Shown in pieces: positions 1 through 26,764 of a DNA stretch of 64,000 bases (position 1 is its first letter; the number at the start of each line of letters is the position of its first letter). The DNA is taken from NCBI GenBank assembly GCA_031372565.1, contig JANMLN010000054.1:1-64000 (forward strand), written 5' to 3'. Below the pieces are notes generated by a model, which was not told the DNA's origin, did not search any database, and was given only the letters and a program-made list of their open reading frames with translations. Source of the DNA: Gemmatimonadota bacterium (GTDB lineage Bacteria > Gemmatimonadota > Gemmatimonadetes > Gemmatimonadales > Gemmatimonadaceae). A program made the position numbers and the translations under genes.

Positions 1-2073
1 ACGCCGCAGTATATGAGTCCCGAACAGGCGATGGGCGAAAAGGTGATCGACGCACGCAGCGACGTGTACGCGCTCGGTGCGGTGGCATACGAGATGCTCA
101 CCGGTGATGCGCCATTCACCGGTACCACGGTGCAGGCGATCGCCCCCAAGGTGTTGCGCGAGAAGCCGACGACGCTGCGCACGCAGCGCGACACCGTGCC
201 ACCGCATGTCGAAACGGCGGTCTTCACCGCGCTGGCCAAGCTGCCCGCCGATCGCTTCGAGAGCGCGAAGGCGTTTGCCGAGGCGCTGGTGAATCCTGCT
301 TACGGCGCGGACAGTGGAGCGGCAGCGAGCGGCTGGGCGCTCCGCCAACCTCCCGCGCGGCAGGTGGTCCGCTTCCCGGCGCCGCTCGCCGCTGGCCAGC
401 GTCCGTCGGACGTGCCGGCGTTGTCGATCGCGCTGTCGCCCGATGGCACTCGCCTCGCGTACATCGCCATCGACTCGAGCACAGGTCGGCAGATGGTGTA
501 CCTGCGCGCGCTCGATCAGCTGACCGCCACCACCGCGATTCCCGGCACGGAAGACGCCACCACCCCCTTCTTTTCGCCGGATGGACTCTGGGTCGGCTTC
601 ACGACGGCCAACGGCGACCTCAAGAAGGTCTCGGTGAGTGGTGGCCCGGTCAGCCGGCTGGCGACGGGGCTCGAACAAAACTTCACGCCATCGTGGGGGG
701 ACGATCCCCGGATCGTCTACGTGAATCTGGGGGTGCCGACACGCGTGTCGGACGGAGGTGGTGCGCCGATCGCGCTGGTGGACTCGACCAACCGGGATCT
801 TCGGGGCGCTGGGTATTCCGTGCTGCCGGGCGGCCGTGCGATGCTCTGGAGACAGTGCGGCTACCGGTATGGCTGTGATGGCGATCTCGCCGTGCTGGAC
901 TTTGCGTCGGGGACGTCCACGGTGCTCGTCCGTGGTGCCTCGCAGGGTTGGTATCTGCCCAGTGGCCACCTGGTGTATGCCACGCGCGAGGGCGCGCTGT
1001 TCGCCGTGACGTTCGATCTCGCGGCGTTGAAAGTCACGAGCACTCCCGCTGCCGTGCTGGACGGCATTCAGCTCATCGGCGCTCGTTTCCAACCGGCGGT
1101 GACCGTGTCGGCCTCTGGATCGCTCGCGTATGTCCCCGGGGGACCCACGGCGGCCAGCAACAGTATCGTCCAAGTGGACCGCACCGGTCGCGAGGAGGCG
1201 TTCGCCGCCAAGCCTGGTGCCTATCAGTCACCGCGGCTCTCTCCGGATGGTCGTCGCCTGGCGTTCCATGATCGCGACGCCAAGGGAGCCTTTCAGGTCT
1301 GGGTGTACGATCGCGCGTCGGCCACCTCGCAACAGCTGACGTTCGAGGGCAACAACGTGCGCCCCACTTGGTCGCCTGATGGCCGTCGCCTCGCATTCTC
1401 CATGCAGCGGGATGGGGCGGCGTTCCACATCGAGTCGGCCCCCGCCGACGGTTCAGGTCCCAGCGAGCAGGTGACGCCGGACCGGGTGGGGGTCACGACC
1501 TCCGCGTGGACGCGCGACGGCCAGTGGATCGTCTTCGACGGAGGGTCAGACGACAAGAAGGATGGTGGACGGCAGGACATCTTCGCGGTCCCCATGTCGG
1601 GGAGGCCGCGCACGGTCCGCCCCGCGGTGGCCGGACCGTTCAATGAGCAGACCGGTGAAGTCTCCCCCGACGGCAAGTGGATCGCCTACCTCTCCGACGA
1701 AACGGGGAAGCCGCAGGTGTATGTGCAGCCGTTCCTGACACCGGGGGCACGCACCCTGATCTCGGCCGGAACCGCCACGGAAGCGGTCTGGGTGTCGAAC
1801 AACGAGCTGGCCTACATCAACAACGACGCCGACAGTCTCACGCTGGCAACGCTCGCGTTCGGCGCGACCACCACCGTCACGCGGACGGCGTTGTTCGATG
1901 CGCGTCCGTATGCGAAGGGCGGTCGACAGTCGCGCAGCTTCGACGTGTCGCGCGACGGCCGGCACTTCATCATGCTGAAGCCGCTGCCGCGCGCGCAGGC
2001 GGTTGTACCGATCGTGGTGCTCAACTGGGCCGACGAGATGAAGCGGTTGATGGCAGCGGCGGGGATCAAGTGA
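1..2073 (+). CDS. Ser/Thr protein kinase K1 with C-terminal PD40/TolB-like beta-propeller (5' end outside window)
   Basis: The frame is open from base 1 (TPQYMSPEQ...RSDVYALG, kinase subdomains VIII-XI). Repeated SPDG motifs follow, ending in VVLNW. No hydrophobic TM segment lies between the kinase and the propeller. Confidence 0.9.
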   Translation, partial: TPQYMSPEQAMGEKVIDARSDVYALGAVAYEMLTGDAPFTGTTVQAIAPKVLREKPTTLRTQRDTVPPHVETAVFTALAKLPADRFESAKAFAEALVNPAYGADSGAAASGWALRQPPARQVVRFPAPLAAGQRPSDVPALSIALSPDGTRLAYIAIDSSTGRQMVYLRALDQLTATTAIPGTEDATTPFFSPDGLWVGFTTANGDLKKVSVSGGPVSRLATGLEQNFTPSWGDDPRIVYVNLGVPTRVSDGGGAPIALVDSTNRDLRGAGYSVLPGGRAMLWRQCGYRYGCDGDLAVLDFASGTSTVLVRGASQGWYLPSGHLVYATREGALFAVTFDLAALKVTSTPAAVLDGIQLIGARFQPAVTVSASGSLAYVPGGPTAASNSIVQVDRTGREEAFAAKPGAYQSPRLSPDGRRLAFHDRDAKGAFQVWVYDRASATSQQLTFEGNNVRPTWSPDGRRLAFSMQRDGAAFHIESAPADGSGPSEQVTPDRVGVTTSAWTRDGQWIVFDGGSDDKKDGGRQDIFAVPMSGRPRTVRPAVAGPFNEQTGEVSPDGKWIAYLSDETGKPQVYVQPFLTPGARTLISAGTATEAVWVSNNELAYINNDADSLTLATLAFGATTTVTRTALFDARPYAKGGRQSRSFDVSRDGRHFIMLKPLPRAQAVVPIVVLNWADEMKRLMAAAGIK

Positions 2074-2133
2074 GCGAGGGCCTCGATTGAAGGATCTGAG
2101 TCCGCTACAGGCGGTGCTACCGTCCATAATTGC

Positions 2134-2162
2134 TTGTTTTAGACGGCATAAACGTCTATAAT
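2134..2162 (+). promoter_or_regulatory. Sigma70-type promoter (TTGTTT-17bp-TATAAT) with an overlapping palindrome; probably gives a leaderless mRNA
   Basis: TTGTTT 2134-2139, TATAAT 2157-2162, ATG at 2171, no Shine-Dalgarno. TAGACG-7nt-CGTCTA inverted repeat at 2140-2158. AT-rich patch in a GC-rich background. Confidence 0.65.
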
Positions 2163-2170
2163 CAGCTATA

Positions 2171-3339
2171 ATGCCCTCACTCGTTCCTCCACTACCGCCC
2201 ATCCGGCGTCGTCTCCCCGCTCCGGAACGGAGCAGCTTCCTCTTCGGCGCCCGCGGAACCGGGAAGTCCACCTGGGCGCGACAGTGCTTTCCTGATGCGC
2301 TGGTACTCGACCTGCGCGCCGGGCCGCTCGCACGCGCACTCGCGGCGGCGCCTGAGCGCCTGCATGATGCGCTCGATGCGGCGCGCGAGGGCCAGTGGAT
2401 CGTGATTGACGAGGTCTCGCGCGTTCCGGCCGTGCTGGACGTGGTGCACCAGCGCATGGATCGCGATCCGACACGCCGCTTCCTGCTCACGGGATCGAGC
2501 GCGCGGTCGCTGCACCGCGCGGGCGTGAACCTTCTCGGTGGACGCGCCGGGCGACGCCTCATGCCGCCCTTTCTCGCCTCGGAACTGGAGGGCGCCTTCA
2601 CCCTCGCGCGCGCGCAGCGCCTGGGGCTCCTGCCCGTGGTGTGGACGGCGGACGATCCCGAGCAGGCACTGCGCGACTACGCCACCGTGGCGGTGCTCGA
2701 CGAGGTGACCGCCGAGGCGCGCGTGCGACAGGTGGCCGGCTTCGCACGCGCGGTCGAGCAACTCGCGCTGGCGCACGGCAGCGTGCTCAGTCCCACGGCG
2801 ATCGCGCAACAGGCGGAGGTCAAGAAGAGCACGGTCATGGATTGGCTGGATGTGCTCGAGTCCATGTTCCTCGTGTCGCGTCTCGCCGTGTTCAGCGCGC
2901 GGCCGTCGCGGCGCGCGCTCGCCGCACAGCCCAAGTTGTACTTTGCCGACACGGGCATTGCCATGGCCTTCCGCCCGGCGGACGTTGCGCGCGTGGCCCC
3001 GGAGGCCGTGGGGGCCGCGCGCGAGGGAATCGTGTACCAGCACCTGGCGGCGTGGTGCGATGCCACGCCAGATGCGCGCCTTTGGACCTGGCGCACGACG
3101 AGCGGCGTCGAGGTGGATTTCGTGGTCGAGACCCCCGAGGGGTTGGTGGCCGTCGAGGTGAAGAGCGGTCCGACGCTGCGTCCCAAGGACCGGCGTGGGC
3201 TGCTCGCGTTTCATGACGAGTTTCCGGAGGCACGACTGGTGGCACTCACGGATGCGCCGCTCCTCGCGCACGAAGGACCCATCACCGTCGAGCCCACCGC
3301 GGACTGGCTCACGCGCGTGGTGCCCGGGGAGGCGCTTCC

Positions 3340-3343
<4 letters not shown>
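2171..3343 (+). CDS. AAA+ ATPase (AAA_14/DUF4143 type) with C-terminal PD-(D/E)XK nuclease-like domain
   Basis: Walker A GARGTGKS, Walker B IVIDEV, LLTGSS, LLGGRA, PKLYFADTG and C-terminal EVDFVV...VAVEVKS. Confidence 0.85.
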
Positions 3344-6036
<2,693 letters not shown>

Positions 6037-6070
6037 GGCGCATGATGCGATCACGGCCTGGAGCGTTCGC

Positions 6071-8749
6071 GTGAGCGACGGCGTGGAGGTGCGCCTCGGG
6101 CGCGCGCTGGCCGACCGCTACCGCATCGAGCGCGAACTTGGGCAGGGCGGCATGGCCACCGTGTACCTCGCGCACGACCTCAAGCATGATCGCGATGTCG
6201 CGATCAAGGTGCTGCATCCGGACCTCGGCGCGGCGCTCGGCGGCGAGCGGTTCCTGAGCGAGATCCGCACCACCGCGCGGCTGCAGCACCCGCACATCCT
6301 CCCGCTGCTCGACAGCGGCGACGCCGATGGCCTGCTGTACTACGTGATGCCGCTCGTGACCGGTGAGACGCTGCGCGCGCGATTGCAACGCGAGAAGCAA
6401 CTCCCGATCGACGACGTGATGCTCATTGCGCGGGAAGTTGCCGACGCCCTCGGCTACGCGCACGGCGTTGGCGTGATCCACCGGGACATCAAGCCCGAGA
6501 ACATCCTGCTGCAGAACGGCCACGCGCTCGTGGCCGACTTCGGCATCGCCCTTGCCGTGCAAAGCGCCGGCGGGCAGCGCATGACGCAGACGGGCTTGAG
6601 CCTCGGCACGCCGCAGTACATGAGCCCCGAACAGGCCATGGGCGAGCGCAACATCGATGCGCGCAGCGACATCTACGCGCTCGGGGCCGTGACCTACGAA
6701 ATGCTCACCGGCGATCCGCCCTTCACGGGCAGCACCGTGCAGGCGATCGTCGCCAAGGTGCTCACCGAGAAGCCGACGGCGCCCAGTGCCGTGCGCGAGA
6801 CGGTGGCGCCAAGCGTCGAGACCGCGGTACTGAAGGCACTGGCGAAGTTGCCCGCCGATCGCTGGTCGTCGACCACGGCATTTGCCGAGGCGCTCTCGCG
6901 AACTGATATCGCAGAACGGTTGTCACTCGCGAGCGCCACACGCGGAACGCCCGCGAGTGCGAGGACGAACTCCATCGGCCGCCGACGCGCCGTTGTCGGC
7001 ATTGCGGGTGCCGTGGCGTTGAGCGCGACGACGGCGTGGCTCGGCTGGCGTGCGCACACACCCGAGCCCGCGTGGTCGGCGTTCACGCAACTCACCGATG
7101 CGTCGGGGGTGGAGACCAGCCCCAGCATCTCGCCCGACGGCGAGACGTTCGTGTACGTGAGCCGCGCCCGCGGTACGGCCGACATCTACTCGCAGCGCGT
7201 GGGCGGTCGCAATCCGACGCTCGTGGTGGGCGACTCCACCATCGACGAGTTGTGGCCGGCCTACTCGCCCGACGGCAAGCAGATCGCCTACAACGTCGAA
7301 GGCGGCGGGATCTTCGTGGTGGGTGCGACCGGCGAGTCGCCCAGACGCGTCACGTCGACCGGTGCGCAGCCCTCGTGGTCGCCCGATGGCACGCAGCTCG
7401 TTTTCGGCGCAGGCGAGGGCAACTCGGCGTACTACACGCTGGGCGGAGGCACCCTGAGCATCGTGAGCAGTAGCGGCGGAGCCCCGCGCCCGCTCGAGGC
7501 CACGATCCCACGCGCGACGAGCAAGCTCCAGCCTTCATGGTCGTCATCGGGTGCACGGATCGCCTTCTGGGCGGTGGTGGGCGGCGTGCGCGACATTTAC
7601 ACGGTCGCGGCCGCGGGCGGGGTGGCGGTGCCGTTGACGAATGACATGGCGGCAGACTTCGCACCCTCCTGGTCTCCCGACGGAAAGTTCGTGTACTTCA
7701 GCAGTGATCGCGGGGGCGCGATGGGCCTGTGGCGGCTGGCGGTCGATGAGGCAACGGGCGTACCGCAAGGCAGTGCGGAGTTGGTCGCGATGGGCACTGA
7801 TCTTCGCATGGAGCTGCCGCGCCTCTCGGCCGATGGTCGCACGGTGATCTTCCGCTCGACGGTGGAGTCGGTCAATCCAGCGGCCATGCCATTCGATCCG
7901 CTCACGCGGCAGGTGGGGCCACCGCGCTTGCTCCAACATCGTACCGGCGTGCTGACGCCGAGTGATGTCTCCGCCGACGGCCAGTGGATGCTGCTCAACA
8001 ATACGCCGGATCGCAACCAGGACGTCTTCCTGATGCGATCCGATGGCCGCGACCTGTCGAGGATCACCGACGATAAAGCGCGCGTCTGGGAGCCACGATT
8101 CATCGGCCGTGGGGACTCGATCGTGTTCCGGTCGAACGTGAGTGGCACGTACGATGCTTATTCGATGCGTCGCGATGGCAGTGAACGCACCCGCCTCACG
8201 AACATCACTGAAGGCGTGTTCGGCGCCGCGTTCTCCCCCGATGGCAAGCAACTGGCCATTTCGACCTTTCCGGCTGACTCGCAGCTCCGGATGGTCGCGA
8301 TCGGTAGTGCGCCTTGGCCAATGACACGCGCAACTGCGAGGAAGCGCTCCGGCGTGAGCGTCGGCAATCGCGTGTTCAGCGCTTACAATTGGTCGCGCGA
8401 CGGACGCTGGTTGTCCGGCAACATGGAAGGATCCGCGAGTGCGGTTGGCCATGTGCTCTATGACATTGCCACGGGAACGATGCGTCAACTGGATACCGCC
8501 GCCATATCCGGCGAGCTCGCGTTCCTGCCGGGCTATCGGCAGGTGGTGTACTTCAACAGCCGTGGCGCGCTGATCATGCAGGACATCGAGTCGCTGAAAC
8601 ACTGGGTGATCGCCGACTCGCTTCCGTATCCGGCCGACCGGCCGCGGAGCATCGTCGCGTCGCCGGATGGCAAGACGTTGTACTACGGGGCGCAGCAGGT
8701 GGAGTCGAACATCTGGATCGTTCGACGGGCGAGCGGGGCGGGGCGATAG
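6071..8749 (+). CDS. Ser/Thr protein kinase K3, TM helix, PD40/TolB-like ectodomain
   Basis: Complete Hanks kinase motifs (HRDIKPEN, DFG, GTPQYMSPE); TM AVVGIAGAVALSATTAWL; many PxWSPDG repeats; ends ESNIW. Confidence 0.92.
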   Translation: MSDGVEVRLGRALADRYRIERELGQGGMATVYLAHDLKHDRDVAIKVLHPDLGAALGGERFLSEIRTTARLQHPHILPLLDSGDADGLLYYVMPLVTGETLRARLQREKQLPIDDVMLIAREVADALGYAHGVGVIHRDIKPENILLQNGHALVADFGIALAVQSAGGQRMTQTGLSLGTPQYMSPEQAMGERNIDARSDIYALGAVTYEMLTGDPPFTGSTVQAIVAKVLTEKPTAPSAVRETVAPSVETAVLKALAKLPADRWSSTTAFAEALSRTDIAERLSLASATRGTPASARTNSIGRRRAVVGIAGAVALSATTAWLGWRAHTPEPAWSAFTQLTDASGVETSPSISPDGETFVYVSRARGTADIYSQRVGGRNPTLVVGDSTIDELWPAYSPDGKQIAYNVEGGGIFVVGATGESPRRVTSTGAQPSWSPDGTQLVFGAGEGNSAYYTLGGGTLSIVSSSGGAPRPLEATIPRATSKLQPSWSSSGARIAFWAVVGGVRDIYTVAAAGGVAVPLTNDMAADFAPSWSPDGKFVYFSSDRGGAMGLWRLAVDEATGVPQGSAELVAMGTDLRMELPRLSADGRTVIFRSTVESVNPAAMPFDPLTRQVGPPRLLQHRTGVLTPSDVSADGQWMLLNNTPDRNQDVFLMRSDGRDLSRITDDKARVWEPRFIGRGDSIVFRSNVSGTYDAYSMRRDGSERTRLTNITEGVFGAAFSPDGKQLAISTFPADSQLRMVAIGSAPWPMTRATARKRSGVSVGNRVFSAYNWSRDGRWLSGNMEGSASAVGHVLYDIATGTMRQLDTAAISGELAFLPGYRQVVYFNSRGALIMQDIESLKHWVIADSLPYPADRPRSIVASPDGKTLYYGAQQVESNIWIVRRASGAGR

Positions 8750-8761
8750 GTTGATGGTCTC

Positions 8762-11407
8762 ATGAGCGACATCGTGCAACGACTCATGGCCTCTCTCGCC
8801 GGCCGCTATCGCCTCGACCGCGAACTCGGCGCCGGCGGCATGGCCACCGTGTATCTCGCGCACGACCTCAAGCACGACCGCGACGTCGCCATCAAGGTGC
8901 TGCACCCGGACCTGGGCGCTGCGCTCGGCGGTGAACGGTTCCTGAGCGAGATTCGCACCACGGCGCGGCTGCAGCATCCGCACATCCTCCCGCTGCTCGA
9001 CAGCGGCGAGGCGGATGGTCTGCTGTACTACGTGATGCCGCTCGTGACCGGCGAGACGCTGCGGGCGCGACTCGAGCGCGAACGCCAGCTGCCGATTGCC
9101 GACGCGGTGCGCATCGCACGCGAAGTGGCCAGCGCGTTGGACTACGCGCACCGCCAGAACGTCATCCACCGCGACATCAAGCCGGAGAACATTCTCCTCC
9201 ACGACGGCTCGGCCCTCGTCGCCGACTACGGCATCGCGCTCGCCGTGCATTCGGCCGGCGGTCAGCGCATGACGCAGACGGGCCTGAGCCTCGGCACGCC
9301 GCAGTACATGTCGCCCGAACAGGCGATGGGCGAGCGCACGATTGATGCGCGCTCCGACATCTACGCGCTCGGCGCGGTGACGTACGAGATGCTGCTGGGC
9401 GAAGCGCCGTTCACCGGTCCGAGCGTGCAGGCGATCGTGGCGCGCGTGCTCACCGAAGAGCCACGCAGCATCGGCGTGCAGCGCAAGTCAGTGCCCGCGG
9501 GCGTTGAAGACGCCGTGCTGCGCGCGCTCGAGAAGCTGCCGGCCGATCGCTTCGAGAGCGCGAAGGAGTTCATCGACGCGCTCGGGCGTGAAGGACTACC
9601 GACCACTTCACGCGCGACCGCTGCCAGCACGCGCGCGCAGGCGTCGCGCGGGCCACTCGTCGCGGCCGCGGCGCTCGCCATCGTCGCGGGCATCGCGGGC
9701 GTTGGCTGGTGGCGTGCGGCGCATACCGGTGCGGCGAGCGGCAGCGGCGCCATACAGTTCACCGTCGAAGAGCCCGAGGGCACACGGCTCGCCGTGGGTT
9801 ACGCCTCCATCGACATCTCGTCGCAGGCGAAACGCATCGTCTTCGTCGCGCGCGACAGCACCGGCATGACCCACGCGTACGTGCGCGCCTTCGATGACGT
9901 GCGCGCGCGGCGACTCGACGGCACCGACGGTGCCACGCAGCTCTTCCTCTCGCCCGACGGCGCGTGGGTCGCGTTCGCGGCGAACGGGAAACTGAAGAAG
10001 GTGCCGACGATCGGTGGCAACGCGGAATTCCTCACGGACCTCCGTAATCCACGTGGCGGACACTGGGCGGCTGACGGCCATATCTACCTGTGCGACGCGG
10101 GCCCCATCATCGTCGTGCCCGAGAACGGCGGTACGGTGAAGACGTTGCGGCCGCTCGTGCTGACGGGACGTCTGTCGCAGTCGCCGCGTCTGCTCGACGA
10201 CGGCAACACGCTGCTGTTCGTCGACTGGGGCGGGAATGTCGGCAATTCGCGCCTCATGGCCTACTCACTCTCGACCGATTCGGTCACGCCGCTCGGCCTG
10301 GTCGGGTCGCGCGCCTTGGGCGTGCATGACGGAACGCTGGTGTACGGCAACGAGCGCGGGGCGATTTACGGCGTGGCCTACGACGCGAGAAGGCGCACGA
10401 CGTCAGGCGAACCACGGTTGATGAGTCAGGTGGTCGCCAGTGACCAGAACCAACTCGCCGCCGCGCTCGCCCCGGACGGATCACTCATCTATCGCTTTGG
10501 TGAAACCAAGTCGGTGCTGACGATCGTCACCCCCGGCGGCGCCACCGAAGTCTTGAGCAGTGCACTTCAGGACGCTGCCGAACCGCGATTGTCGCCGGAC
10601 GCCACGCGCATTGCGCTCACCGTCGGGCGCTCGTTCGACGTTGTCGTGTACGATCTCCGCGCACGCGCATTGACTCGCTTCAATGATCGCCAATCGTCGG
10701 CGACGGAACTCTCCCGCCCGGAATGGACGCCTGATGGTGCGCGGTTGGTCATGCGCGCCGTCACCGGGACGGACAGATCGACCATCATGTGGCGTGCGGC
10801 GAATGGCACCGGCGGCATGGAGCTGTTGCATCGCGATGAGAAAGTTGCCCTCTGGGAGGGTGTCGTCTCGCCCGATGTGCAGTATCTGATGTATCGCAGA
10901 GGGTCCGGTTCGACCGCCGACCTGCGCTATCGCAGGCTCGTGGGCGATACCGCCTCGCGCGCGTTCGTCGCGACGCCGGCCGGTGAGGAGACGCCGCGGT
11001 TCTCTCCCGACGGGAAGTGGGTGGTGTATGCCTCCGACGAGGCGGGGGCGGGCCTCGACGTCTATGTCCGCGGTTTCCCCGACGGCGCTGTGGCATACCG
11101 CATCTCGGAAGCCGGTGGCCAACAACCCGTGTGGTCGCGCGACGGAAAGTCCATCTACTACATCCCGCGCGATGGCATGCTGCTGCGCGCGAGAATCGCC
11201 ACGACATCTGGGGTCACCGTGGCGTCTCGCGACACGCTGGTGCGCAGTGGCTTCGACCTGCCGCCCTTTCGCGGCCACGCCAACTTCGACGTCATGCCGG
11301 ACGGGCGATTGGTGCTGATGCGTCCGATGGAGAACTCGCAGCGCATCGTCGTGGCATCCGGCTGGCTCGATGCCGCGCGCGCCGAGTGGGCGAAGGCGGC
11401 CAAGTGA
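8762..11407 (+). CDS. Ser/Thr protein kinase K4 (DYG variant), TM helix, PD40 ectodomain
   Basis: Kinase domain nearly identical to K3, with ADYGIA in place of ADFGIA; TM LVAAAALAIVAGIAGVGWW; SPDG repeats. Confidence 0.92.
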   Translation: MSDIVQRLMASLAGRYRLDRELGAGGMATVYLAHDLKHDRDVAIKVLHPDLGAALGGERFLSEIRTTARLQHPHILPLLDSGEADGLLYYVMPLVTGETLRARLERERQLPIADAVRIAREVASALDYAHRQNVIHRDIKPENILLHDGSALVADYGIALAVHSAGGQRMTQTGLSLGTPQYMSPEQAMGERTIDARSDIYALGAVTYEMLLGEAPFTGPSVQAIVARVLTEEPRSIGVQRKSVPAGVEDAVLRALEKLPADRFESAKEFIDALGREGLPTTSRATAASTRAQASRGPLVAAAALAIVAGIAGVGWWRAAHTGAASGSGAIQFTVEEPEGTRLAVGYASIDISSQAKRIVFVARDSTGMTHAYVRAFDDVRARRLDGTDGATQLFLSPDGAWVAFAANGKLKKVPTIGGNAEFLTDLRNPRGGHWAADGHIYLCDAGPIIVVPENGGTVKTLRPLVLTGRLSQSPRLLDDGNTLLFVDWGGNVGNSRLMAYSLSTDSVTPLGLVGSRALGVHDGTLVYGNERGAIYGVAYDARRRTTSGEPRLMSQVVASDQNQLAAALAPDGSLIYRFGETKSVLTIVTPGGATEVLSSALQDAAEPRLSPDATRIALTVGRSFDVVVYDLRARALTRFNDRQSSATELSRPEWTPDGARLVMRAVTGTDRSTIMWRAANGTGGMELLHRDEKVALWEGVVSPDVQYLMYRRGSGSTADLRYRRLVGDTASRAFVATPAGEETPRFSPDGKWVVYASDEAGAGLDVYVRGFPDGAVAYRISEAGGQQPVWSRDGKSIYYIPRDGMLLRARIATTSGVTVASRDTLVRSGFDLPPFRGHANFDVMPDGRLVLMRPMENSQRIVVASGWLDAARAEWAKAAK

Positions 11408-11450
11408 GCGACGTCCTTCACGCGACTTCCGGTGTCCCTCGCCTGCTACG
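11404..11450 (+). pseudogene. Vestigial 5' end of another array kinase gene
   Basis: GTGAGCGACGTC overlaps the K4 stop. With one frameshift it reads MSDVL-TRLPVSLACY, similar to the K4 start MSDIVQRLMASLAGRY. Confidence 0.45.
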
Positions 11451-11557
11451 CCGGTGATCCCCTTGTTCAGGTGCTGGGGACGGATGCCGCCGCGAAGGTG
11501 AACGCCAAGGCCCCGGTGCCTGGACCGTTGCGCCGCCGGGCGTCCGGCCTCATTGCA

Positions 11558-12550
11558 TCAGCGGCGCACGTACTTCAGGAGCCGCTCTCCATTGGTGTCG
11601 GCGACGTAGAGGACCGAGTCGCCGCGGACGGCGATCTGGTGCGGAGCCATCACGCTCGAGTCGGCGCGAATGCGCCCGACCTCGCGGAATTCGCGGTCGA
11701 GGATCCTGATCTCGGACTCGGCCGTCGAGTGCCGGATCGCCACATACAGATAGCCCCGAGGGGACACGACGACGTCGAAGACGCGACCGATCGAATCTGC
11801 GGTCGGCCACGTGGCACGCGAGGCCCCCGACTTGGTGAACACCTGGACGCGATTGTTCTCGCGGTCGGCGACGTACAGGTCGCCGTCGGCGCCCATGGCG
11901 AGGCCGTGCGGGATCCGGAACTGGCCCGGATTGAGCCCCTTCGACCCCCACTCGTCGAGGAACCGCCCCGTCGCGTCGAAGTGCGCGACGCGCGAGTTGA
12001 TGTACCCGTCGCTCACGTAGAACGAGCCGTCGGCCGTCATGACGACATCCGTCGGTTCGTTGAAGTGCGTGGCGTCCCACCCGGGCATGCGCGATGTGCC
12101 GACGCTGAGCAGTGGCCGGCCATCGTGCGAGAACTTCAGGACTTGGTGCAGGATGTCGTCGGTGAGCCACACGTTGTTGGACCGATCGACGGTGATGCTG
12201 TGGGGCAGCACGAACTGGTTGGCGCCCCATGCATTGAGCAGCGCGCCGCTCGCGGGGTCCAGCTCGAACACGGTGGCGGTGGGCCGCGTCTCGGTCGCCG
12301 TCCGGTCGAACTTTCCGCCCGCGCGATGAAAGACCATCACATGGCCCGACGTATCGATGTCCACGCCCGAGACCTGGCCGAGCCGGACTCCGGGCGCGAG
12401 CGCCGGCCAGCCTTCAACCAACTGCCACCGCTGCGGCTCCTCAGTCGTCGTGGCTGGGCGATGGCGTGAGGACGACGTGCATGCGAGCAGCACGGCGAGG
12501 CCCGCAAGGCTGAGCCAGCGCGTCCTGCGGCGATGCGACCAAGGCGACAT
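11558..12550 (-). CDS. NHL-repeat lipoprotein, peptidyl-alpha-hydroxyglycine alpha-amidating lyase (PAL)-like
   Basis: Lipobox LLAC; motifs VFHR, FVLPHSITVD, VSDGYINSR, FRIPHGL, VADRENNR, APHQIAV. Start placed at ATG 12550. Confidence 0.8.
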   Translation of the reverse strand: MSPWSHRRRTRWLSLAGLAVLLACTSSSRHRPATTTEEPQRWQLVEGWPALAPGVRLGQVSGVDIDTSGHVMVFHRAGGKFDRTATETRPTATVFELDPASGALLNAWGANQFVLPHSITVDRSNNVWLTDDILHQVLKFSHDGRPLLSVGTSRMPGWDATHFNEPTDVVMTADGSFYVSDGYINSRVAHFDATGRFLDEWGSKGLNPGQFRIPHGLAMGADGDLYVADRENNRVQVFTKSGASRATWPTADSIGRVFDVVVSPRGYLYVAIRHSTAESEIRILDREFREVGRIRADSSVMAPHQIAVRGDSVLYVADTNGERLLKYVRR

Positions 12551-12724
12551 GGGAACGTCTCCGGATGTGATGAGGTGCGCGCCCAAACGTACAGGGTTCC
12601 GCACCGTGTACGCCTACCGCCACAGCTCGTGCTCGCGGCCATGGCCCTCCACCCGTAGCTTCTCCACCCAGCGGCGCCGCAGGGCGTCTGTTCGGCCCCC
12701 CACTCGGCTCCACGCTCGCCCCAC

Positions 12725-15388
12725 ATGCCGACGATCGAGAAGCTCACCGCCGCCCTCGCAGACCGCTACCGCATCGAGCGCGAGCTCGGGCAGGGCGGCA
12801 TGGCCACCGTGTACCTGGCCGCCGACCTCAAGCACGATCGCCAGGTCGCCATCAAGGTGCTCAAGCCCGAGCTCGCCGCCGTCCTCGGCGCCGACCGGTT
12901 CGTGGTGGAGATCAAGACCACGGCCGCGCTGCAGCATCCGCACATCCTGCCGCTCTTCGACAGCGGCACGGCCGACGGCTTCCTGTTCTACGTCATGCCC
13001 TTCATCCAGGGGGAGACGCTCCGCGCCAAACTCGACCGTGAGTCGCAGCTGGGCGTGGAGGAGGCGGTGCGCATCACCACGCAGGTGGCCGACGCGCTCG
13101 ACTACGCGCACCGGCACGGGGTGAGCCAGCGCGACATCAAGCCCGAGAACATCTTGATGCACGACGGCCGGCCGATGGTGGCCGACTTCGGCATTGCGCT
13201 CGCGGTGAGCGCGGCGGCCGGCGGACGGATGACCGAAACAGGCTTGAGCCTCGGCACGCCGCACTACATGAGCCCCGAGCAGGCCACCGCCGACAAGGAG
13301 ATCACCGGGCGCGCCGACATCTATTCGCTGGCCTCGGTGCTCTACGAGATGCTCACCGGCGACCCGCCACACACCGGGGCGACCGCGCAGCAGATCATCA
13401 TGAAGATCATCACCGAGTCGGCGGCTCCGGTGACGAAGGCGCGAAAGAACGTGCCGCCGAACGTGGCCGCGGCGCTGGCGCAGGCGCTCGAGAAGCTGCC
13501 AGCTGACCGGTTCGAGAGTGCGAAGGCATTCGCCGAGGCGCTGGTGAATCGCACGTGGACGAGCACGGCATTTACCGATGGGGGCGCTGGGCTGTACGCG
13601 GGCGCTGGTCGCGCGAGTCGGCGCGCGCTCGTGGCGGTGAGTGCCGTGGCGGTGCTGGCCACCGCGGTGGCGGGGTGGGCGCTGTTACGCCCGGCACCCG
13701 CGCCGCGGGTCGCGCGCTTCGCCCTGCTCCTGCCCGACAGCCAAGCGCTCGGCGCAGGGAACGGCACGCTGGCGACGCTGACGCCCGACGGACGCACGTT
13801 GGTGTACGTGTCTGGCGACGGCGCACTGCGGCGCCTGTGGGTGCGCCCGCTTGACCGGCTCGATGCCGCTTCGTTGGCCGGCACCGAGAATGCGCTGAAT
13901 CCAGCGGTGTCGCCGGACGGTACGCGCATCGCCTTCGTCACGTCTTCGAGCCCGCGCGCGCTCAAGGTGGTGCCACTGACCGGAGGGCCGGTGCTCATGC
14001 TCACCGACTCGCTCGTGGACCTGGGCGGCGTTTCGTGGGGGCATGATGGCTACATCTATTACGACGGCCACCTCGAGGGCGACGGCATCGCGCGCATCAA
14101 GGAGACCGGCGGGCGACCCGAGATCGCGTCGCGGCCCGATACCAGCCGAGGTGAGACGTTTCACAACGTGCCAAGTGCGCTGCCGAACGGGCGCGGGGTG
14201 CTGATGGTGGTGCGGTCCGTGACCCGCAAGGGAGTCGGGTACGACGTTGCCGTGCTCGACACCAAGTCGGGGACGCACCGCGTGCTGGTGAGTGGCGTGT
14301 CCGCGCAGTATGCCGAAAGTGGTCACTTGGTGTACGTGACCGCGACGGGCATGCTGATGGCGGCCCCGTTCGACCCGAGCGCGCTTCGGATCACCGGGGA
14401 CGCGGTGCTCGTGGGAGACGGCGTGGCGGTTCGCGGGGCGACGCGCGTGACACTCGCCACGTCGCACGACGGCACGCTGGCGTACGTCGCGGGGCTGGCG
14501 CGGGGCGTAAAGCGCGAGCTGGTGTGGGTCGGCCGCGACGGCGTGGCGCGCGCGGTGGATTCGTCGTGGACCGGCGACCTGGCGGGCCGTCCGGTGCTCT
14601 CGCCTGATGGGCGCTCTGCGGCGGTGACCATGCGGGGTCCCGCCGAGTTGCAGGTGTGGGTCAAGCAGCTCGACCGCGGCCCGGCAACACGCGTGGCGGA
14701 CGTGGGTGCCGCTCCGTCGTGGTCACCCGGTGGGAAGTCGTTGGTCTTCCAGGTGCCGGGCAGCGGGACGCTGCAAACGGTGCCCGCCGACGGGAGCGTA
14801 CTGCCGTCGGCCATCCCGGGCGTCGGCACGGGGGCGCAGTTCTCCTCCGATGGCAAGTGGCTGGTCTACACCTCTCGTGGTGACATCTTCGGCCAGCGCA
14901 CCGATGGTGACACGACGCCGGTCGCGCTGGTACAGGACCCCGGTACCCAGGGAAACCCCACCCTGTCCCCCGATGGTCGATGGCTCGCCTATCAATCGGA
15001 CGAGACCGGGACGATTCAGGTCTATGTGCGGCCGTTCCCCGACACCAAGGTGGCCAAGCGGCAGGTGTCAACCGTGGCCTCGTATGCGGCGCGCTGGTCG
15101 CGATCGGGGCGTGAGCTGTTCTACTTCGGAAGTGACGCCAGCGGCCTGACCAGCCTCTACTCCGTGGATGTCATTCCGGGTGTCGCCTTCACGACCGGCA
15201 CGCCCAAGCCGCTGTTTTCGGCGGCGCCGTTCGGGCCCACCGCCACGAACACCTTCGACGTCAGCCCGGATGGGCAGCGGTTCCTGTTCTCGCGCGCGGT
15301 GGGGAGTGGAGCCGCCGAGGCGCAGCGGGACCGGATCGTGATCGTGCAGAACTTCGCGGCGGAGTTGAAGGCCAAAGTCGGGAAGTAG
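12725..15388 (+). CDS. Ser/Thr protein kinase K5 (QRD variant), TM helix, PD40 ectodomain
   Basis: Kinase of the K2 subtype; catalytic loop reads GVSQRDIKPEN; TM ALVAVSAVAVLATAVAGWALL; SPDG repeats. Confidence 0.9.
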   Translation: MPTIEKLTAALADRYRIERELGQGGMATVYLAADLKHDRQVAIKVLKPELAAVLGADRFVVEIKTTAALQHPHILPLFDSGTADGFLFYVMPFIQGETLRAKLDRESQLGVEEAVRITTQVADALDYAHRHGVSQRDIKPENILMHDGRPMVADFGIALAVSAAAGGRMTETGLSLGTPHYMSPEQATADKEITGRADIYSLASVLYEMLTGDPPHTGATAQQIIMKIITESAAPVTKARKNVPPNVAAALAQALEKLPADRFESAKAFAEALVNRTWTSTAFTDGGAGLYAGAGRASRRALVAVSAVAVLATAVAGWALLRPAPAPRVARFALLLPDSQALGAGNGTLATLTPDGRTLVYVSGDGALRRLWVRPLDRLDAASLAGTENALNPAVSPDGTRIAFVTSSSPRALKVVPLTGGPVLMLTDSLVDLGGVSWGHDGYIYYDGHLEGDGIARIKETGGRPEIASRPDTSRGETFHNVPSALPNGRGVLMVVRSVTRKGVGYDVAVLDTKSGTHRVLVSGVSAQYAESGHLVYVTATGMLMAAPFDPSALRITGDAVLVGDGVAVRGATRVTLATSHDGTLAYVAGLARGVKRELVWVGRDGVARAVDSSWTGDLAGRPVLSPDGRSAAVTMRGPAELQVWVKQLDRGPATRVADVGAAPSWSPGGKSLVFQVPGSGTLQTVPADGSVLPSAIPGVGTGAQFSSDGKWLVYTSRGDIFGQRTDGDTTPVALVQDPGTQGNPTLSPDGRWLAYQSDETGTIQVYVRPFPDTKVAKRQVSTVASYAARWSRSGRELFYFGSDASGLTSLYSVDVIPGVAFTTGTPKPLFSAAPFGPTATNTFDVSPDGQRFLFSRAVGSGAAEAQRDRIVIVQNFAAELKAKVGK

Positions 15389-15578
15389 ACGCTGGCGGGA
15401 GTGGGAGAGCGCGCTGTACTACGTGATGCCCAACCTGCAGGGGCGGTCGCTGCGCGACCGCATGAACGCGGTGGGGCAGCTGCCCGTGGCCGACGCGGTG
15501 CGCATCGCCACCGAAGTCGCCGGCGCCCTTGACCACGCCCACCGGCACGACGTCGGGCACCGCGACATCAAGCGCGAG
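15389..15578 (+). pseudogene. Internal fragment of a Ser/Thr kinase
   Basis: LYYVMPNLQGRSLRDRM...LPVADAVRIATEVAGALDHAHRHDVGHRDIK matches subdomains V-VIb of the neighbouring kinases; no N- or C-terminus. Confidence 0.8.
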
Positions 15579-15667
15579 CGTGTCGACCGCGAAGAGCTGT
15601 CGGAGCCGCGCCGCCCACCGGCGGGTGGCGCACCACCCGTCGTCCAGGGTTGCGTCTGCGCCAGCGC

Positions 15668-16756
15668 CTAGCGCTTGAGCCAGATCACGATCACCGGCGG
15701 GGGACGCACTCCCGCGCATCCGCAGGGCGACTCGATCGGAAACCGGGCGCACGCGCTTCGCGAGTTCTCGGCCCCGTCGGCGTAGATCTCCACCGCGTCC
15801 ACCTGATCGGCGAAGACGGTCTGCAGCGGCGAGAACGGAATGCCGGCGGGATCCCTCGGGAGCGCCGGCGTCCCGCGCAGGGGGCGCGCCGGATCCTCGA
15901 GTCGCTGATGGCCGTCGATCAGCACGCAGGCGTTCCCCCACCCGACGTTCTTCACCATCCCGAGGGCACGCTCCCGGATGGCCCAGTTCATCGGTGCCCG
16001 CCCCGCCCGCGCCAGATCCTCACTCGTGAGCAGATCCGAATTCACCCCCGCCATCCGGCGGCGCGACTCGAACTCCTGCCGCGTCACGCTGTCGCGCGCG
16101 CCGTAGCCGCTCCGCTCGCGCACCTCCACGGCCGCCAGCCGCTGCGCGAGCGGCTCGAGCTGCACGGTCACGTTGCGCTCCAACTGCTTGGTCATCTCGA
16201 GGCCGCGCACATGCGGCCGATAGCCGAGCTTGCGCACGCGCAGCAGGTAGCGTCCCGGGGCGACGTCGAGAAAGAGGAATCCCCCGTCGGCCCGCGTGCG
16301 CATCACGCGGCTCGCCCCCTCCACGCGCACCTCGGCGTCGGCCAGCGGATGTCCCTCCGCATCGAGCACGAGCCCCCCAAGCTCATTGAACACCGTGGCC
16401 CGCACGTCCACCGCGTCCAACCGCTGCGCCAAGGGACCGAGGGTCACCTTCACCTCGGTGACGCGGCCGTCCGGCAGGGCAAGCGGGAACTCCACCGGCT
16501 CGAACCCAAGCTTGCGGAAGACCAGCACGTAGTCGTCGGGCGGCAGCCCGGTCAGGGAGAAGCGTCCGTCGGCCCGGGTGCGCGCCCGGATCGCGGTCTC
16601 GCGCACCACCACGTCCACGTCGGCCACCGGTCGCCCCGCGGTGTCCACCACCACCCCGGTGAGCCCGCCGCGCACGCGCACGCTGTCCTGCGCCTGCGCT
16701 CCCCTGGGCAGGGCCAGCAGGGCCAGCAGGGCCAGTGCCGCACCCGCGCGTCTCAC
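15668..16756 (-). CDS. Secreted protein with two carboxypeptidase-regulatory-like domains and a Cys-containing plug-like C-terminal domain
   Basis: Signal peptide MRRAGAALALLALLALPRGAQAQ (GTG 16756); two GxVxD...T.ADG.F...RKLG(F/Y) repeats; C-terminal VDAVEIY...C...VIVIWLK. Confidence 0.75.
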   Translation of the reverse strand: MRRAGAALALLALLALPRGAQAQDSVRVRGGLTGVVVDTAGRPVADVDVVVRETAIRARTRADGRFSLTGLPPDDYVLVFRKLGFEPVEFPLALPDGRVTEVKVTLGPLAQRLDAVDVRATVFNELGGLVLDAEGHPLADAEVRVEGASRVMRTRADGGFLFLDVAPGRYLLRVRKLGYRPHVRGLEMTKQLERNVTVQLEPLAQRLAAVEVRERSGYGARDSVTRQEFESRRRMAGVNSDLLTSEDLARAGRAPMNWAIRERALGMVKNVGWGNACVLIDGHQRLEDPARPLRGTPALPRDPAGIPFSPLQTVFADQVDAVEIYADGAENSRSACARFPIESPCGCAGVRPPPVIVIWLKR

Positions 16757-16944: not shown

Positions 16945-17121
16945 GGGGGGTCGATCAACTCTTCAGCGAGGATACGGCGCGATTGCGGACCTCGCCAGCG
17001 CCGAATAGCGGGCGGCAGCGTGCCCGCCGTCTCGGTCGCGCGCCGCCGGGGCCGTGCGACCGGCGATCACCGTGGGGCGGCGATACGGGCGGGACCGAGC
17101 GGTAGCGGTCGCCGCGCGCGC

Positions 17122-23057: not shown

Positions 23058-23495
23058 CTAGCGGGTCGCCGCGAGCGGGTTCAGCCACTGCAGGGACCGG
23101 AACCGCGCGAAGTCCGAGTCGGTGGAGCACAACTCGGCCGCGTGCTCGATGGCCAGCGCGGCGAGATGGGCATCCGTCGTGAGGTTCCCCGCCGTGCCGG
23201 CCTCGAGCAAGAGGCGGCGCAGCACGCGCCAGTGGTCGTCACCTGGCGCGAGCGGTGTGACGGCGGGCTGCGCGAGCCAGGCGTCTACGGTCGCGCAGGC
23301 TTGGGCGACCGTCAGGGGTGCGGCGAAGACGCGCGCGTTGGTGGCCAGCCGCAGGAAGCCGAGCACCACGACCCACGGCAAGGCGACGGGCTCCTCGCCG
23401 CGCAGTGTCTCCGCGAGCCAGCGCGCGGCGCGCGCGTGCTGCGGCGCCTGGGTGTTGGTTGCGTAGAGGAGGATGTTGAGATCGAGGAGCTTCAT
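23058..23495 (-). CDS. vapC: VapC-family PIN domain toxin
   Basis: LLDLNILLYA, GFLRL.TN, GNLTTDAHLAALAIEH, STDSDFARF, WLNPL. Confidence 0.9.
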   Translation of the reverse strand: MKLLDLNILLYATNTQAPQHARAARWLAETLRGEEPVALPWVVVLGFLRLATNARVFAAPLTVAQACATVDAWLAQPAVTPLAPGDDHWRVLRRLLLEAGTAGNLTTDAHLAALAIEHAAELCSTDSDFARFRSLQWLNPLAATR

Positions 23496-23509
23496 GTCGT
23501 GCGCGGCCG

Positions 23510-23776
23510 TCAGCGCCGTTCGTCGAGTTCGCGCCGGACGGCGACGTCCTCGAGCGCATCCGCGAGGGCGAGGGCGCGATCGAGATCGATGCCGACCTGC
23601 GGGGCCCCCATGGCAAAGCGGGGCAGCGGCCGCACCCGCGCCGCCTTGGCCGGCTCGGGCTTGAGGCCACGCCGGAGCGCCAGATCGAGCAGCGCCTTCA
23701 CGGAGACGCCGCGGCGGAGCGCCTCGGTGCGGAGCCGCCGCAGGAGGTCGGGTGCGATGTCCACGGTGGTGCGCAT
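23510..23776 (-). CDS. vapB: VapB-type antitoxin (RHH-like N-terminus)
   Basis: MRTTVDI..DLLRRL...A.RRGVS; 88 aa, directly upstream of the PIN gene. Confidence 0.85.
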   Translation of the reverse strand: MRTTVDIAPDLLRRLRTEALRRGVSVKALLDLALRRGLKPEPAKAARVRPLPRFAMGAPQVGIDLDRALALADALEDVAVRRELDERR

Positions 23777-24100: not shown

Positions 24101-26764
24101 ATGACTCCCGACCTCAACGCGCTGAGCGGCGCGCTCGCGGGACGATATGCCATCGAGCGCGAGCTCGGGCAGGGCGGCATGGCCACCGTGTACCTGGCGC
24201 GTGACCTCCGCCACGCGCGATCCGTGGCCATCAAGGTGCTGCTGCCGGAGCTCGCGGCCGCCCTCGGGAGCGAGCGCTTCCTGCGCGAGGTGGCGGTGAC
24301 CGCCCGCCTGTCGCATCCGCACATCCTCCCGCTGCTCGACTCCGGGGAGGCCGCGGGCACCCTCTTCTACGTGATGCCGTTCGTGGCCGGCGAGACGCTG
24401 CGTCATCGGCTCGATCGGGAGAAGCAGCTGCCGGTGGACGACGCGCTCGCGATCGCCCGCGAGGTGGCCGACGCGCTGGACTATGCCCACCGCCAGCACG
24501 TGGTGCACCGCGACATCAAGCCGGAGAACATCCTGCTCGAGGATGGTCACGCGGTCGTCGCCGACTTCGGCATTGCGCGCGTCATGGATGCCTCTGCCTC
24601 GCAGGCGCTCACGGGCACCGGCCTCGCCATCGGCACGGCGGCGTACATGAGCCCGGAGCAGGCGTCGGGGATGTCCGACGTCGACGGTCGCAGCGACATC
24701 TACGCGCTCGGTTGCCTCCTGCACGAGATGCTCGCGGGACAGCCGCCGTTCACCGGGCCGGTCGCGCAGAGCGTCATCCGCCAGCACGTCACCGCCGACC
24801 CGCCGAACCTCACCGACATGCGCGGTGCGGTGCCCCCCGCGGTGAGTGCGGTCGTGCGTCGCGCCCTCGGCAAGAGCCCGGCCGACCGCCAACCCACGGC
24901 CCGGGTGTTCGCCGTGGAACTCGCGGGGGCGGTGCAGGGCGCGGCGACCTCGGGGCCGAGCGTCGCGGCGGCACCGGCATCGCGCGCGCGGCGGCGCGCG
25001 CTCGTCGCGGGCGGGATCGCGCTGCTGCTCGCCGTCGGCGCCTTTGCGGCGCGCGACCGCCTGTGGCGCCGCAGTCCGAGCGGCGCCGCGCAGCTCACGC
25101 GCCTCGTCGTGCTCCCATTCGAGAACATCGGCAAGGCCGAAGACGCGTACTTCGCCGACGGGGTGACCGAGGAGATCGCGAGCCGGCTCGGGCAGGCCCC
25201 CGGGGTGGCCGTCATCGGGCGCGCCACGGCCGCGCAGTACAAGGGCGCCGCCACGTCGCTGTCCACCATCGGTACCGAGCTCGACGTGCAGTACGCGCTC
25301 ACCGGCACCGTGCGCTGGAGCGACGAGCCGGCGGGGCGCCGGGTGCGCATCACCCCGCGGCTGCTGCGCGTGTCGGATCAATCGCAGCTGTGGACCGATC
25401 GCTACGACGCCGTCTTCACCGATGTCTTCGCGACGCAGGGGCGCATCGCCGCCGAGGTGGTGAGTGCGCTCGGGATCACGCTCGGCAATCGCGACGCGGT
25501 GCGCGACAGCACGCCGCCCACGCGCAACGTCGCCGCGTACGAGGAGTACGTGCGCGGCAACTCGTTGCTGGCGCAGTGCACGATTCTGCCGTGCAAGCGG
25601 GCGGTCGAGGCCGCCGCGCGGTTCGAGGTGGCGGTGCGCCTCGATCCCGACTTCGCGGCGGCGTGGGCGGGGCTCGCGCTTGCGTGGCCCGCATCGGGGT
25701 CCGCCGAGAGCGCCGACATGGATCGGGCGGCGGTCGCCGCGGAGCGTGCGCTGGCGCTGGCACCGCAACTGGCGGAGGCGCATGCCGCGGCCGCCCGCGT
25801 CGCGTACGCCTCACGCAAGGACGACGCCAAGGCGGAGGGTGAGTTCCAGAAGGCGCTGGCGCTGCAGCCGTCGCAACCCGACGCGCTTCGCGGCCTCGGC
25901 CTCCTCTATCGGCGGCAGGGCGAACTGGAGCGTGCGGTGGACCTGCTGCTCCGCGCCGCCGTGCTCGATCCACGCAACCGCCCCGCGCAGTATGACCTCG
26001 GCGTGACCTACCAGCGCCTGCGCCGCTATGACGAGGCCGAACGGTTCCTCGAACGTGCCATCGCGCTCAGTCCGTCGGACCAGAACCAGCTCCAGCGACT
26101 TGCGATCCTCAAGCTGATGCGCTCGGGTGACGTGGCAGGCGCGCGCCAAGTGCTCGCGCGAGCTCCCGATCCGTTCATGGCGATGGCGAAACTGCCGGAG
26201 ATCCCCGGCTACCTCGAGATGGCCGCCGTCCTGTGCGATGGGTGTGCCGCTGCGGCCAACGATCGGCTTCGCGCGCTGGGGCCCGTGCCGCGAGACTCCG
26301 CTCCGCATCCAGAGGCATGGGATTGGCGTGGCCGGCTCGCGGGGCTGGCGGGTCACGGTGGCGACGCTCGGGCTGCGTTCGATTCAGCGGTGAACCGGGC
26401 GCAACGCCAGATCGCGATGACGCCGAACGCGACCGACGGGTTCGAGCCGCAAGCGAGCCTCGCCGAGTTGGCCGCACACGCCGGTCGTCGAGAGGTGGCC
26501 CTGAAGGCCGCGCGCGAGGTACTCCGCTTGCTGCAGGTGTCTCCGAACGGCACGTGGGGACCCGACGCGATCAATACCGCGGCTGAGGTCTTCGCCGTGT
26601 TCGGCGAGGACTCGGCGGCCATCGAGAACCTTGATCGCGCGCTGACGCTGCCGGCGCATGTCTCGGCCGCGCTCGTGCGCATCAACCCCGTGTGGGCGCG
26701 ATTCCGCGGGGTCAGCGCCTTCGAGCAGATGCTGGCCCGGCACGAGCGACCGGCAGCGCGGTAG
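24101..26764 (+). CDS. Ser/Thr protein kinase K6 with TM, TolB-N-like domain and TPR repeats
   Basis: Full kinase motifs; TM ALVAGGIALLLAVGAFAA; LVVLPFENIG..YFADGVTEEI; TPR-like ERALALAP and ERAIALSP repeats. Confidence 0.9.
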   Translation: MTPDLNALSGALAGRYAIERELGQGGMATVYLARDLRHARSVAIKVLLPELAAALGSERFLREVAVTARLSHPHILPLLDSGEAAGTLFYVMPFVAGETLRHRLDREKQLPVDDALAIAREVADALDYAHRQHVVHRDIKPENILLEDGHAVVADFGIARVMDASASQALTGTGLAIGTAAYMSPEQASGMSDVDGRSDIYALGCLLHEMLAGQPPFTGPVAQSVIRQHVTADPPNLTDMRGAVPPAVSAVVRRALGKSPADRQPTARVFAVELAGAVQGAATSGPSVAAAPASRARRRALVAGGIALLLAVGAFAARDRLWRRSPSGAAQLTRLVVLPFENIGKAEDAYFADGVTEEIASRLGQAPGVAVIGRATAAQYKGAATSLSTIGTELDVQYALTGTVRWSDEPAGRRVRITPRLLRVSDQSQLWTDRYDAVFTDVFATQGRIAAEVVSALGITLGNRDAVRDSTPPTRNVAAYEEYVRGNSLLAQCTILPCKRAVEAAARFEVAVRLDPDFAAAWAGLALAWPASGSAESADMDRAAVAAERALALAPQLAEAHAAAARVAYASRKDDAKAEGEFQKALALQPSQPDALRGLGLLYRRQGELERAVDLLLRAAVLDPRNRPAQYDLGVTYQRLRRYDEAERFLERAIALSPSDQNQLQRLAILKLMRSGDVAGARQVLARAPDPFMAMAKLPEIPGYLEMAAVLCDGCAAAANDRLRALGPVPRDSAPHPEAWDWRGRLAGLAGHGGDARAAFDSAVNRAQRQIAMTPNATDGFEPQASLAELAAHAGRREVALKAAREVLRLLQVSPNGTWGPDAINTAAEVFAVFGEDSAAIENLDRALTLPAHVSAALVRINPVWARFRGVSAFEQMLARHERPAAR

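Follow-up and report, generated by a model that had tools for sequence, protein, structure and literature searches.

Predicted PknD-like receptor kinases with conserved double-propeller ectodomains form arrays in Gemmatimonadota that are probably reshuffled slowly through their kinase DNA

How does a row of genes arise and change when all of its members begin with a similar protein kinase and end in different β-propellers? The question is raised by a 64,000-nucleotide stretch of DNA from a Gemmatimonadota bacterium (GCA_031372565.1, contig JANMLN010000054.1), hereafter the window, which carries five such genes, K1 to K5, at positions 1–15388. The genome, G000, is a 4.44-Mb assembly in 201 contigs, and the window is its segment C10:1-64000; the three sequencing runs in which half or more of the sampled words occur are metagenomes of freshwater sediment, all from a single study. 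The named homologs of the window genes come from Gemmatimonadales and Gemmatimonadaceae. We compared the array with three congener genomes (G001, G002, and G003) and further relatives (other G numbers; L numbers denote homolog loci), which are mostly fragmented metagenome assemblies. An initial annotation, made from the sequence alone, had pictured a constant kinase carrying hypervariable ectodomains. The reading we favor, with a probability of roughly 0.68, is that these are PknD-like receptor kinases whose double-propeller sensors fall into conserved types, and that the arrays they form are slowly reshuffled through kinase homology.

The five open reading frames (ORFs) lie on the + strand, each matches Pkinase and PD40 of Pfam, and the complete genes measure 2646–2697 bp, so that the five co-oriented genes of about 2.6–2.7 kb described initially are borne out. 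Their N-terminal domains are predicted Hanks-type Ser/Thr kinases: the VAIK lysine and the HRD, DFG, and SPE motifs are complete in K2 and K3, the N-lobe of K1 lies off the contig, DYG replaces DFG in K4, and K5 reads QRD in place of the HRD seen in its ortholog in G002. K2 to K5 carry a single hydrophobic helix (1.6–2.2), called from a hydropathy scan rather than by a dedicated predictor, 22–29 residues after the kinase. Positive charge flanking this helix averages +2.7 before and +1.3 after it in 62 genes, as expected for a kinase inside and a propeller outside, and K2 to K5 are thus predicted to be single-pass receptor kinases with a periplasmic propeller. From K1, about 30 residues have been lost in frame, the transmembrane (TM) helix among them, with a junction near 318 (range 316–321). 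The helix is present in 101 of 103 K1 homologs with a kinase end, the two exceptions looking like mis-set boundaries, and a contig of run X2, from a second sample, crosses the K1 junction gap-free (249–718). Devoid of its TM helix, K1 is not a receptor as it stands and appears to be either a cytoplasmic kinase-propeller or a decaying gene. A pair of cysteines is conserved in more than 90% of the K1 homologs, which fits an oxidizing compartment.

Structure prediction, suggested as a check by the initial annotation, gave an AlphaFold2 model of the K1 ectodomain (108-row alignment) that is nearly all β, with a pLDDT of 93 and a pTM of 0.87. It is predicted to comprise two six-bladed propellers, the outer one TolB-like: residues 264–548 of the model superimpose on the TolB-like protein 2ojh (Z 28.9, r.m.s. 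deviation 2.5, 257 aligned residues) and on Escherichia coli TolB (1c5k, Z 26.7), and the same residues match the PknD sensor 1rwi with a Z of 19.5 over 228 residues. From strand order, without inspection of the coordinates, we infer that the second propeller is membrane-proximal and closed by the first and last strands. A Foldseek search against the PDB returned only generic double-propeller matches (TM score 0.29–0.35) and did not find the same two-propeller arrangement.

This architecture recalls several known proteins. Mycobacterium tuberculosis PknD likewise has an N-terminal Hanks kinase, one TM helix, and a C-terminal extracytoplasmic propeller (PMC1847690, PDB 1rwi), whereas the ectodomain described here has 574 residues and two PD40-type propellers instead of a single PknD-type sensor of about 250. 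The PASTA kinases PknB/Stk1 provide the closest solved kinase domain (PknB, the best PDB match, E 5e-55) and the same kinase-TM-sensor order, which is the commonest order in bacterial kinase families (bioRxiv 2025.01.12.632604), but no PASTA domain was found in K1 to K5, and their NF033483 scores (284–310) stay below the cut-off of 450. TolB and the N-terminal propellers of tricorn and DPP IV resemble the outer propeller, as seen from the matches to 2ojh and 1c5k and from the look-alike clusters mentioned below; unlike TolB, K1 to K5 have no Pfam match to TolB_N, score 37–169 against a TIGR02800 cut-off of 343, are fused to a kinase, and contain the two-propeller arrangement.

The kinase turned out to be less constant than first described. 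The window kinases share 58–80% amino acid identity and fall into two types, A (K1, K3, and K4) and B (K2 and K5). The claim that K3 and K4 differ mostly at synonymous sites over long stretches holds at codons 31–90 and 151–180 and fails elsewhere: of 270 kinase codons, 143 are identical, 73 differ synonymously, and 54 by replacement, with a dS of 0.61. Kinase dS between the window paralogs is 0.48–0.79, so that their likeness mostly reflects purifying selection and not recent homogenization.

Nor could the hypervariability of the ectodomains be upheld. The paralogous ectodomains of the window, held initially to be barely alignable beyond SPDG motifs, align at 26–40% identity, that of K3 belonging to a separate subfamily, while orthologs in congeners are 92% (K4, G002), 88% (K4, G001), 86% (K5), and 77% (K2) identical, and the K1 region is 79% and 72% identical to database proteins. 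The proposed comparison of dN/dS (by the Nei-Gojobori method, the values being approximate at this high GC content) yielded 0.16–0.36 for the ectodomains of eight ortholog-like pairs between G000 and its congeners and 0.07–0.26 for the kinases of the six pairs with kinase data, all below 1; a ninth, partial pair, G002/G003, gave 0.52 for the ectodomain. The values for distant paralogous ectodomains, 0.46–0.97, are saturated and were left out of the argument. Putative top-face loops, assigned from the model, are 7–16% identical among window paralogs versus 18–34% for the strands, and in seven ortholog pairs they have pooled dN/dS values of 0.37 (0.29–0.44) and 0.32 (0.26–0.42), with 44–55% change in two ortholog pairs. 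Neither the pairwise nor the pooled dN/dS tests detected positive selection on the ectodomains. Diverged paralogous loops combined with low ortholog dN/dS fit distinct, maintained specificities, and the ectodomains appear to be old, distinct types under purifying selection.

That kinase DNA serves as a recombination substrate, as the initial annotation had suggested, finds support in the disagreement between the kinase and ectodomain trees of 61 genes. In approximately unbiased (AU) tests, run on 28 of these 61 rows, the kinase data reject the ectodomain clades formed by K2 and its relatives in G003 and G002 (p 1.6e-36), P0002 and P0004 (p 1.6e-72), P0001 to P0004 (p 2e-54), and P0016 and P0024 (p 1.8e-5). 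Between P0002 and P0004, identity jumps from about 63% in the kinase to about 89% in the ectodomain where the kinase ends. The opposite pattern is seen in a gene pair of G007, in which the kinase DNA is 98% identical and includes a 467-bp exact tract with both ends inside the kinase, and the ectodomains share 32% amino acid identity. The K2 ectodomain type sits on type A kinases in G002, and kinase and ectodomain identities are uncorrelated over 1020 non-orthologous pairs (rho 0.04). The combination of a constant 5′ part with an exchanged 3′ part, by which polymorphic toxin/Rhs loci are recognized, thus appears to be present here, and recombination through the kinase DNA appears to be slow.

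Gene order points to turnover as well. The K2 ortholog of G003 follows a kinase-TPR-like gene instead of the AAA gene, and a K2-type gene comes after K4 in G002. Behind K4, the kinase stump of G000 has 13 codons and is followed by the NHL gene; that of G001 has 56 residues and is followed by a gene with weak likeness to Phd; that of G002, longer and broken, is followed by a DUF6036 nucleotidyltransferase pair. This succession of stump and cargo is what homology-facilitated illegitimate recombination, a mechanism put forward for T6SS arrays in Vibrio and for Rhs loci (PMC5361080), would be expected to leave. At locus L097, a K1-type gene is followed by a decayed stump and then by a Phd/PIN pair, and about 35 kinase codons are fused to an S9 peptidase in the G036 array. 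Among 12 internal partial kinase matches, sought by tblastn, which misses stumps under about 40 codons, seven start at residue 1 and none is a 3′-only piece. Kinase genes often overlap the preceding stop codon. The three vestiges listed initially, at 2070, 11404, and 15389, fared unequally. The last is confirmed as a remnant at 15399–15584 (E 4e-12), and that at 11404 by a local alignment (shuffle p 0.004 and 0.02) and by the K4 orthologs of G001 and G002, where a kinase starts at the same stop overlap; the one at 2070 stands only through its homolog context, since an intact kinase start occupies this junction in the K1-type homologs L089 and L092, and a decayed one in L097.

Elsewhere in G000, a single in-frame stop interrupts a family gene (C109:16572-19679), and an ectodomain that lacks a kinase (C192:46313-47950) has a G002 ortholog (77%) that carries one. 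L169 (G000:C10:97928-106188), a second hotspot on the same contig as the window, holds in one row a whole kinase-propeller gene, two 5′ kinase stumps, an AbiEii-like gene, an AAA/DUF4143 gene, and a PIN pair. The birth-and-death turnover initially postulated agrees with the stumps, the nonsense-broken copy, and the orphan ectodomain of G000 and with the differences in order, neighbors, and copy number among relatives; when the latter were compared, as had been advised, both copy number and order varied. Other cargo comprises peptidases, amidases, permeases, and PP2C phosphatases. The PP2C genes located within or next to the kinase arrays of G014 and G003 (L015:13464-15223 and L019:26-889) belong to one subfamily and are candidate cognate phosphatases. 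A search of five genomes, including G000 C10 and C101, G036 C3, and G056 C3, detected no tyrosine integrase (PF00589) close to the arrays; an integrase-driven array therefore appears improbable, although the region upstream of K1 lies off the contig.

These features would be accounted for by occasional homologous recombination, anchored in kinase DNA, that builds and reshuffles the array. Double crossovers in conserved kinase motifs would replace the kinase under old ectodomain types, single crossovers would delete, duplicate, and reorder genes, and one homologous plus one illegitimate crossover would leave a stump, cargo, and a chimeric kinase. Each ectodomain type may bind its own ligand on the propeller faces, most likely a peptide or protein, a guess that comes from the likeness to TolB and peptidase propellers. 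Ligand binding would then cause kinase dimerization and autophosphorylation, by analogy with PknD, the activation of which is driven by dimerization (PMC1847690). Shared substrates, for example the FHA proteins of G000, would be phosphorylated and reset by PP2C phosphatases (eight FHA and seven PP2C profile matches in this genome). The toxin-antitoxin (TA) genes and those for DUF4143 would have hitch-hiked along and may make the array slower to be deleted; TA modules are reported to stabilize the Vibrio superintegron (PMC7167474).

Alternatively, the array could reflect ordinary paralog expansion, by old tandem duplication and deletion under purifying selection, in which recombination is rare noise and an insertion-tolerant region collects cargo. 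The kinase dS of the window paralogs is what this explanation anticipates, recent homogenization is infrequent (a nucleotide identity of 88% is attained by 3 of 413 kinase pairs from the same genome), kinase and ectodomain are still matched in the ortholog pairs K5/G002, C4/G004, and C87/G002, and a large, expanded group of Ser/Thr kinase paralogs under purifying selection has been reported from Solibacter (PMC3174227). Duplication and loss by themselves would not be expected to produce the AU rejection of ectodomain clades, the G007 tract, or the repeated stump with cargo at one site, and we regard paralog expansion by itself as rather unlikely. Besides the rarity of recent tracts, several other points weigh against reshuffling of functional receptors. 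PHI tests are only partly positive, with p values of 0.001 for all sites and 0.04 for third positions in G000, 0.007 and 0.83 in G036, and 0.0005 and 0.19 in G056. The stumps can also come from plain deletion; the missing TM helix of K1, the QRD of K5, and the DYG of K4 suggest that part of the array may be decaying; and the P0002/P0004 and G002 contigs, from fragmented metagenomes, could be assembly chimeras. The window kinases share an exact match of 36 bp at most, which also speaks against the array being itself a repeat-induced misassembly of dispersed kinase genes. This last suspicion is raised by the short-read metagenome assembly, by a contig that begins inside K1, and by the fact that, among the matches listed, no single run contig spans the whole stretch 1–15600. 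However, the longest exact repeat among the 18 family kinases of G000 is 56 bp, contigs of runs X2 and X3 among the same matches bridge AAA-K2, K2-K3, K3-K4, and NHL-K5 gap-free, and larger arrays are present in genomes of 4–10 contigs (G007, G036, and G056), so that the misassembly that the initial annotation had named as a possible refutation is very improbable.

The neighbors suggest another explanation, that of immune-type islands, in which proteins of phages, predators, or competitors would be sensed at the envelope by the propellers and answered with a growth arrest triggered by the kinases, hence the TA and defence-like genes. In G000, a kinase ORF lies no more than 1 kb away from 6 of the 18 PIN matches (0.43 expected, p 2e-4), a kinase of the propeller family from 3 of the 18 (0.09 expected), and a kinase ORF from 3 of the 8 DUF4143 matches (0.19 expected, p 0.001), the expectation being random placement, which ignores the general clustering of accessory genes; this clustering of PIN and DUF4143 genes beside kinases is new here. 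PIN pairs also occur in the arrays of G036 (four), G007 (three of its six), and G064 and G006 (one each), the AAA/DUF4143 gene matches the PADLOC candidate model PDC-S01, AbiEii-like and DUF6036 nucleotidyltransferases adjoin kinases, and copy number varies strongly. On the other hand, the putative binding loops are overall free of positive selection, the PADLOC PD-T4-6 matches cover only K4 residues 1–322, i.e. the kinase domain, and much of the cargo is metabolic (peptidases, amidases, and permeases). The arrays located in G056, G014, G070, G049, G060, G040, G004, G027, G062, and G011, ten of the 14 relatives, yielded no TA genes (other kinases being unmapped), which also counts against the hitch-hiker part of the reading we favor; a general TA association of the arrays was rejected accordingly, and DUF4143 was not found in G007, G036, and G056. 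We thus consider immune-type islands quite unlikely. A bolder version, which we hold to be unlikely as well, would make the kinase DNA of Gemmatimonadota, and of Acidobacteriota, an integrase-free, superintegron-like cassette platform, in which dozens of ectodomains are traded on kinase heads and held by TA genes, as a pattern-recognition repertoire against phage, predator, or competitor proteins and a counterpart of plant receptor-like kinase clusters.

As a locus, the array resembles two known systems. Rhs and T6SS effector-immunity arrays, with their C-terminal displacement, share the constant 5′ and variable 3′ parts, and the relics, and for them too no dedicated recombinase was found (PMC5361080, PMC3482391); unlike them, the variable part here is a predicted sensor, all propeller and not a toxin, no small immunity-like gene follows each kinase, the kinase relics are 5′ stumps and not orphan 3′ tips, and most kinase genes are whole. 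The Vibrio superintegron (PMC7167474) has similarly long co-oriented arrays with, as in some of the genomes studied here, interspersed TA pairs and unrelated cargo, but no integrase was detected near the arrays tested, the kinase genes often overlap by stop and start, and the repeat unit is coding kinase DNA.

The array is not a rarity but one of many such loci in G000 and its order. In G000, 65 ORFs match the kinase profile and 18 carry a window-type ectodomain; a second array of four type A kinase genes with PIN genes in between was observed at L170 (G000:C101:73220-86093). Window DNA is matched in all 21 genomes searched, a tally that includes the unpublished G012, which enters no other result. 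With the K4 ectodomain as query, and at most 23 candidates scored per genome, 29 of 61 phylum genomes gave a match: 27 of 40 in two families of the order, the single genome of a third family, and none of the remaining 19. Copy number varies strongly among relatives, up to a 93-kb array in G036 (L069-L074, C3:312159-405262) with 26 kinase-match ORFs, 20 of them with a window-type ectodomain and the others with TPR tails; two kinases of this array have the propeller as a separate downstream ORF. Many frameshifted copies occur at L078-L080 (G064:C6), similar gene sets being present on C2 and C16 of G064, and may represent long-read errors or strain duplicates. Look-alikes in the atlas are commonest in Acidobacteriota, and their clusters carry PD40 and Tricorn_N. 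The literature search, which did not extend to subscription journals, retrieved no papers on kinase-propeller arrays in Gemmatimonadota or Acidobacteriota, and the main text of the kinase atlas (bioRxiv 2025.01.12.632604), the supplement of which may classify the family, contains none of the terms Gemmatimonad, Acidobacter, propeller, PD40, and TolB.

Within the window, the row is broken up by the AAA_14/DUF4143 gene and the minus-strand NHL gene and is therefore not contiguous. No exact overlap of the start of C10 with other contig ends was found, and the array is known only from K1 onward. At its other edge, an 878-bp contig (run X1, record 8) matches 15094–15388 and then differs right after the K5 stop, which appears to be a population variant, and a YdjM gene follows the K5 ortholog there in G002. 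An operon on the minus strand (15671–20197) with an ECF sigma factor, a probable anti-sigma factor bearing CBM48, and exported proteins adjoins the array, and an ORF of 2789 codons lies at 36988–45354.

Table 1. Kinase genes, kinase remnants, and neighboring genes in the window
Feature	Position	Strand	Characteristics or evidence
K1	1..2073	+	Type A Ser/Thr kinase C-lobe and double propeller; 5′ end cut by contig start
Stop/start overlap with 2–6 codons of a lost kinase start	2070..2090	+	Weak alone; homolog junctions L089, L092, and L097
Cargo: AAA_14 + DUF4143 ATPase	2171..3343	+	Similar to PADLOC candidate defence model PDC-S01
K2	3340..6036	+	Type B kinase, TM helix, double propeller
K3	6071..8749	+	Type A kinase, TM helix, PD40 propellers of a separate subfamily
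K4	8762..11407	+	Type A kinase (DYG for DFG), TM helix, double propeller
Decayed, frameshifted kinase 5′ stump, about 13 codons, overlapping the K4 stop	11404..11450	+	Orthologous junctions, local alignment
Cargo: NHL-repeat propeller protein, probably exported	11558..12604	-	ORF and Pfam
K5	12725..15388	+	Type B kinase (QRD for HRD), TM helix, double propeller
Internal kinase remnant, about residues 77–145 of the domain	15399..15584	+	Match to K3 residues 84–145, E 4e-12
PIN toxin gene and small upstream partner, outside the array	23061..23776	-	Divergent from the kinase at 24101, directly upstream
Related kinase with TM helix and TPR ectodomain, outside the array	24101..26764	+	Kinase match, neighbor of the PIN pair

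Soils and sediments commonly harbor Gemmatimonadota and Acidobacteriota, two phyla that have received very little study, and a single array such as the 93-kb one of G036 makes up as much as about 2% of the DNA of some genomes. Until a ligand or an output is found, the arrays represent a genomic pattern around a known protein architecture. They would provide a natural case in which gene arrays grow and acquire cargo by means of homology between coding sequences, no integrase being involved. Should the kinase heads prove interchangeable, the ectodomains would constitute a large, modular, and conserved set of sensors, the ligands of which could be screened on a single reporter kinase.

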